A DNA stretch of 47,498 nt from Chloroflexota bacterium (lineage in GTDB: Bacteria > Chloroflexota > Anaerolineae > Anaerolineales > UBA11858). Location: positions 1 through 47,498 of the forward strand of contig DRBO01000023.1 in assembly GCA_011039385.1 (NCBI GenBank), given 5' to 3'. The notes under the pieces were generated by a model. That model had not been told where the DNA came from. It was given only the letters and a program-made list of their open reading frames with translations, and made no database searches. The position numbers and the translations under genes are program-made. Positions 45,107-47,366 of the stretch are shown here, piece by piece (position 1 is the stretch's first letter; every line of letters begins with the position of its first letter).

Positions 45107-46105
45107 ATGATAGATCCGAAACTTCCCCTGGTAGATCTGCATCGGCACCTTGACGGAAGCATAAGGCTGGAAACCATCCTTAATCTAGCTGCCAAACATG
45201 ATATCCGGCTACCGGCGGATACACTCGAAGAGCTGCGGCCATACGTCCAGATCACTGAACCCCGGCCAGGCGTGATGGCATTCATCGAAAAATTCAAGTA
45301 TATGGTCGGCATACTGGCTGATTATGACGCCTGCCGGCAGGTCGCTTATGAAAATGTGGAAGATGCTTATCAGGAGGGGATAGATTATATAGAGCTGCGC
45401 TTCAGCCCCTATTTTATGGCGGAGTCCCATCAGCTGGACCCCGCTGGCGTTGTGGAATCCGTCCTGCAGGGCCTGCAGGACGGCCGCGAGGCATTTGATA
45501 TTGGGGTGAATGCCATTGGCATAATCAGCCGAACATACGGCCCGGACCAGGGCTGGGCTGAGCTGGAAGCCCTGCTGGCCTATCAAGACCAGATTACAGC
45601 CCTCGATCTGGCCGGTGATGAGGTCAATTACCCTGGAAGACTATTTGTGGATCATTTCCGGGAAGGACAGAAAGCCGGCTGGCATATCACGGTACATGCT
45701 GGCGAGGAGGATGGGCCAGACAGTATCTGGCAGGCGATAGAGGAGCTTGGCGCTGAGCGGATTGGCCACGGTGTGAGTGCGATCCAGGACCCTCTGTTAA
45801 TGGATTATCTGGTCGAACACAGGATTGGCGTGGAATCGAATTTAACCAGCAATCTGCAGACCAGGGTTGTTGATAGTTATCAGGATCACCCCCTCCGTAA
45901 ATTCCTTGAGGCTGGGATTCTGGCAACGATTAATACAGATGATCCAGGGATCAGTGCTATCGATCTGCATTTCGAATATGAACAGGCTGCCCCGGCCGCG
46001 GGGCTCAGCGAGGAGCTGATCACACGGGCGCAGCGGAATGCGCTGGAGGTGGCTTTTATCAGCCCGGAAGAGAGGGCTGGTTTGCTAGATAAGCAAGATC
46101 GTTAA
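45107..46105 (+). CDS. add: Adenosine deaminase
   Basis: DLHRHLDG, ELRFSP, DLAGDE, VHAGE, RIGHG and NTDDP motifs. Confidence 0.95.
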   Translation: MIDPKLPLVDLHRHLDGSIRLETILNLAAKHDIRLPADTLEELRPYVQITEPRPGVMAFIEKFKYMVGILADYDACRQVAYENVEDAYQEGIDYIELRFSPYFMAESHQLDPAGVVESVLQGLQDGREAFDIGVNAIGIISRTYGPDQGWAELEALLAYQDQITALDLAGDEVNYPGRLFVDHFREGQKAGWHITVHAGEEDGPDSIWQAIEELGAERIGHGVSAIQDPLLMDYLVEHRIGVESNLTSNLQTRVVDSYQDHPLRKFLEAGILATINTDDPGISAIDLHFEYEQAAPAAGLSEELITRAQRNALEVAFISPEERAGLLDKQDR

Positions 46106-46280
46106 GGCCATTCAAGTGTAATAAACATTCGCATAGAGGGAAATGTGACGTTTCAAGACCCGCCAAGGGATCTTCAGCTGGAACACCAAGCATCCTTCGG
46201 CATCGCCCAAATTCCCAGATCCGAGTGCGTTTTACCACCAGGGGGCGTCTTGTGGGGAAAATTGAAAAGGAAACGATCCC

Positions 46281-46946
46281 ATGGCAAAATTCAATCAATT
46301 GAGTGATCGTGAGTGGGAAATTATCCGACAGCTGCTGCAGGGTAAAAGCAATAAGCTAATTGCTTTGGCGCTTGGTGTTTCTATCAGCACAGTAGAATTC
46401 CATTTGAATAATATCTATGCAAAGTTGGAAGTAAGCTCCCGGCTGGAGCTGATCTTAGTACTATGGAAAGCCACAGGTAAAGTCGAAGTCGATGAACTAA
46501 GGTATTCCACAGTTGACAGGCTGGAAGATTTTGTTGAAAATGAAGATCAGTTCACTATCGACCAGTTGCGGGGACTGCGGGGTACTATGCGTTTATATCG
46601 ATTAGTTCTTATAATCTGTTTGCTAGCGACACTTTTGCCGCTTGGGATCCTGTTCTATACTGCCAGTTTCGTGCCAGGATCCATAATCATGTGGCGATCA
46701 ATATTCCTCTGGCTGCTCCCGTCAGCCGCAATCATATTTCTGCTTCTGCTTTTTCCCAGAACGGGTTTTCGAACACTTATTTTCATCGCTTACTTAATTT
46801 TTCTGCCCTTCCTCGCCATAACATTCTTTTTTAGATTAATAGGGCCATTGTGGCTCATCCCATACCTGGTTGGAGCAGGGGGAGTTCTTATTGCGGCAAG
46901 ATCCAGGAAAAGAGACCAGGATGCTAGCACGCTTGATGCCGATTAA
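46281..46946 (+). CDS. LuxR/GerE-type HTH fused to a C-terminal four-TM membrane domain
   Basis: LSDREWEII..LLQGKSNK.IA..L.VS..TVEFHL.NIYAKL.VSSR HTH at aa 7-60, a polar linker, then four hydrophobic segments from M103. Confidence 0.88.
   Translation: MAKFNQLSDREWEIIRQLLQGKSNKLIALALGVSISTVEFHLNNIYAKLEVSSRLELILVLWKATGKVEVDELRYSTVDRLEDFVENEDQFTIDQLRGLRGTMRLYRLVLIICLLATLLPLGILFYTASFVPGSIIMWRSIFLWLLPSAAIIFLLLLFPRTGFRTLIFIAYLIFLPFLAITFFFRLIGPLWLIPYLVGAGGVLIAARSRKRDQDASTLDAD
46461..46541 (+). promoter_or_regulatory. Intragenic lux-box-like operator pair plus sigma70 promoter
   Basis: CTATGG-AAAG-CCACAG (46461-46476) and CTAAGG-TATT-CCACAG (46497-46512). The second abuts TTGACA (46513-46518), then 17 bp and GAAAAT (46536-46541). 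Confidence 0.55.
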
Positions 46947-47330
46947 GCTGATAGTTCTCCGCTGGCTAGCATAATTAATGATCTGAACCTCAGTAAATTA
47001 CATCATCTCTTGAAATTTCTATCGGCCCTGTTGAATTTTAACTGAAAGATATCTATGCCCTGGAACAGCCATGTTCCAGGATTGGGTTTGTTTTAGCGAC
47101 CACAGTTACAGTTGCTGTATACACATACTTTCTGTTTCTATCACTTTCCGGCATAGCTATTGACCCAATCCTTTGGTATTTTTCCTGTCACCTCCCCACG
47201 GGGGTTTGTATCATAAACATAAATTTGTGTTTCATGCTTTATTTCTAAAAGTTCAGGGATTTTTTCCGGGGCAGGATAAGAACCGCAGGCATAAACTCAC
47301 TATTCCTATCCAATTTTAATAACGTAATAT

Positions 47331-47366
47331 TTCCATACCACTCCGCGAACATAGAGTGGTATGGAA
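47331..47366. terminator. Orphan perfect hairpin (possible terminator)
   Basis: 13-bp inverted repeat TTCCATACCACTC / GAGTGGTATGGAA with a 10-nt loop. Confidence 0.5.

Follow-up and report, generated by a model that had tools for sequence, protein, structure and literature searches.

Family-wide DNA-level constraint and a candidate nested promoter in the coding linker of a membrane-tethered LuxR-type regulator from Anaerolineae

The regulator gene and the elements in its linker

The gene considered here encodes a transmembrane transcription regulator of a Chloroflexota bacterium (Anaerolineae; Anaerolineales; UBA11858) and lies near the end of contig DRBO01000023.1 of assembly GCA_011039385.1, of which positions 1 to 47,498 were analysed as a whole (the window). 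Its product combines a helix-turn-helix (HTH) domain of the GerE/LuxR type with a linker and four predicted membrane helices. The codons of the linker contain two imperfect palindromes, referred to below as box 1 and box 2, followed by a pair of promoter-like hexamers and, further on, by an in-frame ATG at which the membrane domain begins. These elements had been noticed in a previous reading of the DNA made from its letters alone (the sequence-only reading), and every one of them is present in the sequence; the peptide repeats LWKATG and LRYSTV do both use CTA and ACA codons, as that reading had remarked. Comparison with relatives indicates that the letters of these elements are constrained at the DNA level throughout the regulator's family, and that the stretch which they form is probably a promoter. 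The features of the gene are as follows (ORF, open reading frame).

46281-46946, plus strand: transmembrane transcription regulator ORF of 221 aa, stop codon included in the coordinates; HTH, linker and four membrane helices
46296-46460, plus strand: GerE/LuxR-type HTH, residues 6-60 (Pfam PF00196)
46459-46478, no strand assigned: box 1, 20-bp imperfect palindrome TACTATGGAAAGCCACAGGT; its core CTATGGAAAGCCACAG (46461-46476) corresponds to codons L61-G66, the end of HTH helix 4
46495-46514, no strand assigned: box 2, 20-bp imperfect palindrome AACTAAGGTATTCCACAGTT; its core (46497-46512) corresponds to codons L73-V78
46513-46518, plus strand: -35-like hexamer TTGACA, in codons V78, D79 and R80
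46536-46541, plus strand: -10-like hexamer GAAAAT, in codons E86 and N87, after a 17-bp spacer from the -35
46547-46550, plus strand: predicted start of a short transcript, placed by the 6-8 nt that usually separate a -10 hexamer from the start of transcription
46587-46946, plus strand: in-frame ORF nested within the gene and opening at M103; its 119 aa are those of the four-helix membrane domain only

The last two bases of box 2 are also the first two of the -35-like hexamer, and the spacing from box 1 to box 2 is 36 bp. Box 1 keeps 5 and box 2 keeps 6 of the eight symmetric outer pairs, and TTGACA-17-GAAAAT scores 10/12 in a promoter scan. Taken within the window alone, the rarity of these elements is not compelling: promoter sites of at least 9/12 number 6 in 2.5 kb, against 4.1±2.3 in shuffled sequence; the family box consensus with at most one mismatch occurs at just these two places in 47.5 kb (expected 0.58; 13 of 100 shuffles reach two); and with at most two mismatches it has 10 matches in the window against 8.56 expected. 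Judged by comparison of sequences, the real significance of the elements lies in their conservation among relatives.

At the protein level, the match of the N-terminal HTH to PF00196 over residues 6-60 (E=1.8e-18, 66.3 bits against a curated cut-off of 23.5) places the 221-aa product in the GerE/LuxR HTH superfamily. The closest solved sequences, the DNA-binding domains of LiaR (4wt0), VraR and NarL (1je8), align with residues 4-60 only (E ~1e-8). Neither Pfam nor NCBIfam revealed the autoinducer-binding domain of a quorum-sensing LuxR receptor, models of the SdiA/RhlR type aligning with the HTH part alone. Likewise, no receiver domain of the NarL/FixJ response regulators was found in the protein, and the NCBIfam response-regulator equivalogs match with their C-terminal HTH only, far below cut-off. 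Four hydrophobic segments follow the linker (residues 108-126, 140-158, 166-184 and 186-206, located with a 19-residue hydropathy window rather than a dedicated transmembrane predictor), and the distribution of lysine and arginine around them is compatible with an N-in/C-in orientation. According to PMC10269533, a transmembrane transcription regulator is a protein in which a DNA-binding domain is combined with one or more predicted transmembrane regions; the protein fits this definition with its GerE domain and four hydrophobic segments, and we take it to be a membrane-anchored regulator of the one-component type. The four-helix domain has no Pfam family, and a best score of 0.87 in the ESM Atlas also led to no family.

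An AlphaFold2 model built from a 22-row alignment (mean pLDDT 62.5) contains the four helices of the HTH at pLDDT ~80-88, C-terminal helices at residues 89-130, 137-157, 163-184 and 192-207, and pLDDT values below 50 over residues 69-96. The linker between the HTH and the membrane helices is accordingly predicted to be a disordered cytoplasmic stretch of ~35 residues. A two-copy complex prediction of residues 103-221 scored 0.00, with the fold of the partners uncertain.

Relatives and the sequence set

The full-length homologues retrieved with a word-indexed search number 21, at 50-93% identity, and in the resulting 22-row alignment L61, W62, L73, V78, D79, M103 and R104 are invariant. Many further proteins match over residues 1 to ~90 only. 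An exhaustive search of 1.84 billion representatives (clustered at 50% identity) returned 264 matches at E≤1e-10 and 4 at E≤1e-30, the 264 being an upper bound on the family, as some multi-HTH proteins match through the HTH alone. Two of the four best matches are giant multi-HTH proteins; proteins of this kind (P0082, P0083, P0084, P0088 and P0183; 2854-7240 aa) carry 6-11 separate GerE-type HTH stretches, an odd architecture that has nothing to do with the regulator gene.

Family DNA was collected from genome contigs (the best 80 of 243 confirmed stretches), from metagenome contigs (the best 80 of 245 confirmed) and from a genome search, and loci were chosen by HTH peptide patterns and protein similarity, not by linker nucleotides. 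Of the 175 loci obtained, 165 matched on the plus strand, and once identical DNA was taken out 156 distinct gene sequences were left, among them the gene of the window itself and the near-identical pair L096/L097. The records of the relatives are almost all metagenome-assembled genomes of Anaerolineae and other Chloroflexota. Their C-terminal parts fall into at least 12 unrelated classes (blastp, 1e-5), with 104, 5, 5, 5, 4, 4 and 3 members plus five singletons; the four-helix class of the window comprises 5 DNAs, two of them nearly identical, and Pfam gave nothing informative for ten representatives of the other classes. The sequence-only reading had spoken of an L-x-x-S-T-V linker in other Anaerolineae LuxR fusions with varied C-termini, and of a modular family should this hold; the relatives confirm both.

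Synonymous constraint in the linker

Among the 156 sequences the codons of the HTH vary freely: V14 is GTC in 43, GTG in 40 and GTT in 36, N24 is AAT in 91 and AAC in 62, and N44 is divided 98/54. The linker codons that carry the letters of the boxes and hexamers are, by comparison, nearly fixed.

Codon G62: GGG in 103 of 107
Codon T65: ACA in 106 of 111 listed
Codon G74: GGG in 112 of 112
Codon S76: TCC in 145 of 146
Codon T77: ACA in 127 of 128
Codon V78: GTT in 138 of 148
Codon N87: AAT in 146 of 146

Two further codons keep their letters while the residue changes. Codon 64 is NCC (GCC, ACC, TCC, CCC), though the residue may be A, T, S or P, and codon 79 is GNN (GAT, GCG, GAA, GTT etc.; D, A, E, V), with G as its first base in 152 of 156.

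One C-terminal class (104 of the 135 complete sequences classed) dominates these raw counts, and a divergent subset and a paired comparison address such kinship in part. Within 40 sequences of less than 75% nucleotide identity in the HTH, the TCC, ACA and AAT codons stand at 34/34, 28/28 and 37/37, against 23/14 for the two codons of N24. When 76 disjoint pairs are compared at codons that specify a shared residue, 105 of 665 differ in the motif and 1160 of 3161 in the HTH (Fisher p 8e-28), with 73 of 283 differing in the other linker codons and 220 of 778 in codons 88-112. A codon alignment of the linkers, which the sequence-only reading had proposed as a test of its claim, is in its favour on this point: synonymous sites are near-fixed relative to the HTH, and the dyads, the TTG and the spacing are retained. 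On this comparison, constraint at the level of DNA is genuine and extends throughout the family for the dyads, TTG, 17-bp spacing and -10 alike, and it appears very probable that a regulatory module exists here at the level of DNA.

Consensus of the boxes and hexamers

The family consensus is AACTRGGGaAnnCCACAGGT for box 1 and AACTRGGGnatTCCACAGTT for box 2. CCACAG words lie exactly 36 bp apart in 61 of the 77 sequences with two exact copies, and the mean number of symmetric outer pairs, out of eight, is 5.46 for box 2 and 4.54 for box 1, as compared with 2.03 when 20-mers are drawn at random from these genes. In the most distant orthologue, box 1 (L098:1681-1696) is a perfect palindrome, CTGTGG-N4-CCACAG, and in the four-helix clade Trp62 (TGG), standing in place of the family Gly62 (GGG), makes box 1 more symmetric.

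In the -35 the first three positions are T in 141, T in 133 and G in 152 of the 156 sequences, and the last three are variable. The spacer varies in sequence, its length being 17 bp in 90 of the 117 sequences with CCACAGTTG, and the -10 positions read G in 147, A in 151, A in 108, A in 146, A in 147 and T in 143. Both TTGACA and GAAAAT are invariant in the five DNAs of the window's clade, down to 53% protein identity. The perfect TTGACA that the sequence-only reading had pointed out is a property of this clade; the full hexamer is found in only 6 of the 156, and TTG alone is kept family-wide.

The tRNA genes of the same genome provide a useful reference set of clean promoters for promoter prediction in this lineage: 21 of their 28 upstream regions (120 nt) hold a site of at least 10/12, against 3 of 560 shuffles, and these sites follow TTGACA-17-TAnAAT, mostly with a 17-bp spacer and 10-46 nt before the gene, the -10 taking the forms TAAAAT, TATAAT, TACAAT and TAGAAT. 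The hexamers and the 17-bp spacer of the nested site match this host consensus as a sigma-70-type promoter would, the sole difference being a G for T at the first base of the -10. Exact TTGACA-17-nAnAAT is rare, occurring 17 times in the 1.92-Mb assembly (3.84 Mb on both strands), 13 times with TAnAAT, and 12 of the 17 sites lie outside open frames of at least 120 aa. As far as the alignments go, the pattern of conservation (TTG fixed and the rest of the -35 free; nAnAAT with a free third base) is that of a sigma-70 promoter, and we think it likely that the module is a promoter.

The G that opens GAAAAT might, in the sequence-only reading, be explained by the avoidance of in-frame stops. This is correct in so far as the genome does use TAAAAT and TAGAAT, which would be stops in this frame, but TATAAT and TACAAT would not, and a T at this position is seen in 0 of 156 sequences although TAT and TAC are allowed codons. 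The G must therefore have some cause besides the avoidance of stops.

The largest C-terminal class (for example L017 and L018) has TCT ATA ATC at codons 104-106, containing a perfect TATAAT just before AAG GAG ... ATG AAA. Unusual codons are kept at this place (TCT 87, ATA 45, ATC 91), with an AGAGA...TCTCT inverted repeat upstream, and this TATAAT may be a second nested promoter or an element of a 5' untranslated region (UTR).

Copies of the module outside coding sequence

Run over the 156 loci, a position weight matrix (PWM) of box 2 recovered 144 box 2 and 49 box 1 positions and only nine other matches, three of them downstream of orthologues. Locus L190 of G027, a genome of the same genus (G027:C5:306300-310300), holds three modules in the same orientation, the first in the linker of the gene, the second 190 bp past its stop codon and the third another 1.5 kb along. 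The sequence of this last module is CTGGGGTATTCCTTAG-TTGACA-17 bp-GAAAAT; after 43 nt comes AGGAG-N6-ATG, with which a separate membrane-anchored ORF of 248 aa begins. Stop codons interrupt the relic linker frame, and there is no HTH ahead of the module. The same arrangement, with a module before a separate gene, is found in L097. Between the untranslated copies of L004 (2345-2392) and L097 (2556-2600) there are 0/6 differences in the -35, 0/6 in the -10, 2/16 in the box and 6/17 in the spacer, whereas 18 of 40 flanking bases differ upstream and 44 of 60 downstream. Hexamers and box hold while the flanks diverge, which indicates that they are kept where no protein is encoded.

The modules of G027 are separated and followed by ORFs of 214 aa (secreted), 85 aa (PLDc_N-like), 248 aa and 233 aa, for which Pfam offered no informative family. 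These neighbours gave no tblastn match in the window's genome, and L097 is without the middle part of the arrangement, as if it had been deleted between module copies.

With regard to wider distribution, the word CTRNGGNNNNCCACAG occurs three times in the window's genome, twice here and once within a MATE-like ORF. Box 2 is the top PWM match of its own genome (32.6 bits, against 18.9 for the runner-up), and neither the exact word nor the PWM yields a second convincing box site there; the paralogues L002 and L003 of the same genome are generic LuxR-type matches in which no box/promoter module was found. Among 401 genomes sampled from the phylum, 6 had the strict pattern of box and promoter, five of these belonging to the same order, and a reversed control pattern hit 1.

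The internal start and the upstream region

The sequence-only reading had noted an in-frame ATG at 46587 (M103) where the membrane domain begins. In the alignment M103 and R104 are invariant in 22 of 22 proteins; no ATG of any frame lies between the -10 and this one, which the first hydrophobic segment closely follows. With GGAG, GAGG or AGGA at -16 to -4 counted as a Shine-Dalgarno (SD)-like word, 147 of the 327 in-frame ATGs in codons 90-135 have such a word before them, compared with 25 of the 506 in-frame ATGs found elsewhere and 3 of the 154 that lie in this zone but out of frame. An in-frame SD and ATG before the membrane domain is found in 135 of the 156 genes, as compared with 80 that have an SD at the annotated start, and the SD region is encoded by differing peptides (K-E-L-x-M-K, R-R-I-P-M-K, W-R-I-P-M), which argues for a signal at the RNA level. 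The first ATG after the predicted transcript start is in frame in 115 of 155. The sequence-only reading had suggested looking for an SD and ATG behind the linker; most of the family has such a site, but in the window's own clade the SD is weak and only 2 of the 5 DNAs have one by this count. L098 has AGGAGG before M101.

Stand-alone homologues of the 119-aa domain were limited to two matches (P0079 and P0080), both on contigs below 1 kb and probably truncated gene calls. In L148 the frame is broken after the linker (100 aa), and an SD and ATG of its own precede the membrane part, which is read in a different frame; this is either a natural split form or a sequencing error. We lean towards the view that a short product is made.

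The region upstream of the full-length gene (46106-46280) contains no promoter of at least 9/12 except one that overlaps the start codon, and family-wide a promoter of at least 10/12 is found in 6 of 146 upstream regions, against 11 of 730 shuffles. An adenosine deaminase gene (45107-46105; PF00962, E 3e-100) ends 175 bases upstream of the regulator gene, and no terminator-like site was found between the two. Since there is neither a consensus promoter upstream nor a terminator after the adenosine deaminase gene, the long form may be produced at a low level.

Discussion

The conservation of the module enabled us to propose a model for how one gene might give two products. RNA polymerase would start near 46548, and the first AUG of the resulting short transcript, that of M103, would open the 119-aa domain without the HTH, so that a long regulator and a short membrane-only form would come from the same gene, the short form perhaps from the stronger, nested promoter. 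We put the chances that promoter and operators nested in the coding sequence yield this membrane-only product at about even. In this model the boxes, whose centres would fall at about -43.5 and -79.5, most likely serve as operators to which a dimer of a LuxR-type HTH would bind, supplied by the gene's own product or by a paralogue with the same recognition helix, and such a dimer could control both the nested promoter and the identical stand-alone modules before neighbouring genes. The recognition helix (T37-Y46) is as conserved as the box, and the binder would therefore most simply be the gene's own product or a paralogue. Binding of the boxes by the family HTH seems to us only a little short of an even chance, and activation as its consequence is rather doubtful. 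In its widest form our proposal is a tentative one, and somewhat improbable as a whole: a portable one-gene circuit of the membrane-tethered LuxR family in Anaerolineae, in which operator pair and target promoter are written into the codons of the disordered linker and a regulator binding its own gene would switch on its own short form, possibly in cis during membrane insertion, the cassette having been joined to at least 12 unrelated sensor or membrane domains or left as a stand-alone promoter for neighbouring genes, as in G027.

A number of observations weigh against this proposal. The -10 is without its usual first T in every one of the 156 sequences, the perfect -35 of the window's clade needs no activator, and a clear SD before M103 is missing in three of the five clade DNAs. 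The weaker synonymous constraint over codons 88-112 is covered by a promoter only in so far as this stretch would be its 5' UTR. The box, moreover, is nearly confined to family genes and their relics: in five genomes, seven of the eight exact matches lie in family genes and the eighth is a chance match in a NuoE-like frame. Essentially absent elsewhere, the box offers no independent regulon that would tie it to the HTH. Lastly, recombination could inflate local conservation within the clade.

Part of this evidence would be accommodated if the short form arose at the level of translation only, by internal initiation on the full-length mRNA as for TipAS, the conserved letters then being processing, standby or protein-binding signals of the mRNA. 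The in-frame SD and ATG is the best-supported element in the family and needs no internal promoter, and the constraint over codons 88-112 also speaks for such an origin. However, RNAalifold gave no consensus structure for 107 distinct ungapped 105-nt segments (113 of the 156 sequences are ungapped there), pairs 3 and 4 of the would-be hairpin show A.C (~40-47%) and G.A (71-79%) with no compensatory change, and Rfam had no match on 46100-47100 beyond one long non-coding RNA at chance level (E 0.33). The fixed and free positions instead fit a sigma-70 promoter and the organism's own consensus, and the non-coding copies keep the hexamers and the box. We consider a purely translational explanation unlikely.

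It is unlikely to the same degree that the boxes are operators for repression, through roadblock or occlusion, or for a different protein, with hexamers that are weak or constitutive and without self-activation. In favour of this are the -35 of the clade, whose perfection makes an activator unnecessary, the position of the boxes, since dimers next to the -35 and 36 bp upstream within the ORF could block polymerase, and the fact that the box is linked to the HTH by co-occurrence alone. Most -35s of the family, though, consist of TTG and variable letters, as in activator-dependent promoters, the box position fits that of activating lux-type boxes, and the recognition helix and the box are both conserved family-wide.

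Recombination does occur within the gene, as mosaic orthologues and a variant-free contig demonstrate. In HTH, linker and membrane part, the window is identical to L004 at 175/180, 99/126 and 299/357 positions and to L097 at 160/180, 114/126 and 346/357. DNA contigs from four runs hold two co-occurring variants, 15 letters apart in 46250-46421 and 23 in 46679-46886 (~9-11% in the flanks), yet both share one 317-nt variant-free contig at 46392-46708, which runs across the linker and the first membrane helix (0 differences in X1 and X5, 2 in X2); the X12 contig has four changes there, one in box 2, three in the spacer and none in the hexamers. As the variant-free block exceeds the regulatory elements, it is not clean evidence for selection. 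Such data, together with the direct module repeats in one locus and the N-terminal module common to at least 12 unrelated C-terminal classes, could suggest that the linker DNA is a recombination handle for the exchange of HTH and C-terminal parts, made uniform by gene conversion and devoid of any regulatory role. We find this improbable: conversion homogenises whole stretches, whereas here single letters are fixed amid variable ones, with variation in the spacer and at codon 75; these letters persist in different families of one order, among which HTH synonymous sites are saturated; and the fixed letters are the functional positions of a promoter.

There is very little chance that the peptide alone is selected, as a protease site or docking motif (L-G-x-S-T-V ... 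E-N) of which the DNA features are by-products or accidents, for although S76, T77, V78 and N87 are conserved in 150, 132, 152 and 150 of 156 sequences, their codons are near-fixed where those of equally conserved HTH residues are not, so that the synonymous counts contradict it, codons 64 and 79 keep their letters as the residue changes, the untranslated copies keep the motif and the linker is predicted to be disordered. Readings of the motif as an integron attC, Xer-type or frameshift site were also considered and dropped, the motif being unlike their consensus.

The regulator belongs to the GerE superfamily and to the transmembrane transcription regulators, and not to the TipA or lux-receptor families. 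DNA-binding domains of the NarL/FixJ class bind inverted repeats as dimers; unlike LiaR, VraR and NarL, the present protein has no receiver domain, and its HTH is N-terminal and tethered to the membrane. BcrR, like the present protein, has an N-terminal HTH followed by four membrane helices. ToxR, CadC and BcrR all unite a DNA-binding domain and membrane segments in one polypeptide, as is the case here (PMC10269533). The known transmembrane regulators act on upstream promoters of other genes, and neither literature searches nor the main text of that survey yielded one whose linker codons hold a promoter or operator; the searches also brought up nothing on the present family, and the same main text makes no mention of LuxR, GerE, isoform, internal or autoregulation.

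Similarity to the lux box lies in a 20-bp dyad with outer CTG...CAG(GT) that touches the -35 of a sigma-70 promoter, and here a GerE-fold dimer would presumably bind it in the same manner. On the luxI promoter the lux box is centred at -42.5. A dyad of ~20 bp at the -35 is present and conserved in our family (for the sequence of the lux box see Table 3 of PMC4444344). The two systems differ in that there is no autoinducer domain here, the inner letters of the box are not the same and it is the ORF of the regulator itself that contains the site.

TipAL/TipAS of Streptomyces lividans and AlbAL/AlbAS, of the MerR family, consist of a long HTH form and a short C-terminal form from one gene (PMC6078987). 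Our proposal has in common with them the long form, with HTH and C-terminal domain, and the short in-frame form from a single gene, and the long form of the known system, TipAL, regulates its own gene. The TipA systems, however, are soluble drug sensors of the MerR type, in which the short form results from an alternative translation start on one mRNA and the operator is upstream, whereas the present gene has a GerE/LuxR-type HTH, a C-terminal membrane domain, and promoter and boxes within the coding linker; the TipA combination of a MerR HTH with a drug-binding C-terminal domain is not found in its product. AerR of Rhodobacter also exists as long and short isoforms of one regulatory protein with different activities (PMC6199135); it is a soluble photoreceptor, unlike the membrane regulator described here, and is not known to have an internal promoter or operator.

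The route by which membrane-bound transcription factors reach their DNA targets is described as poorly understood (PMC10269533). If the proposed circuit is true, the family would be a natural system in which to study how the nearest DNA is captured while transcription, translation and membrane insertion are coupled. It would also illustrate clearly how densely a bacterium can code twice over, with protein, operator and promoter in the same 90 bases and a measurable cost in codon choice, and would exemplify a modular way of building sensor/effector pairs from one gene. The proposed short product escapes gene callers and domain annotations altogether. Looking forward, the elements are cleanly testable, as single synonymous changes should kill the -35 or the -10 and leave the protein unaltered.

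Features downstream of the gene

Two further features lie between the stop codon of the regulator gene and the end of the contig.

47059-47080, plus strand: terminator-like hairpin and T-rich tail downstream of the gene, also kept in L004 and L097
47096-47107, plus strand: remnant GCGACCACAGTT, the start of a second box/promoter module, recognised by alignment with L004 and L097, where the module is complete

The contig ends 552 bases after the gene, and of the second module the window contains only these 12 initial bases. The related loci cease to be homologous after GCGACCACAGTT...GTTGCT; the ~390 remaining bases are unrelated and contain an inverted repeat near 47330-47365, and the cause may be a rearrangement or else a repeat at which the assembly broke. 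On the other side of the gene, L004 and L097 retain a mere fragment of the adenosine deaminase gene, beside a transposase-like ORF.

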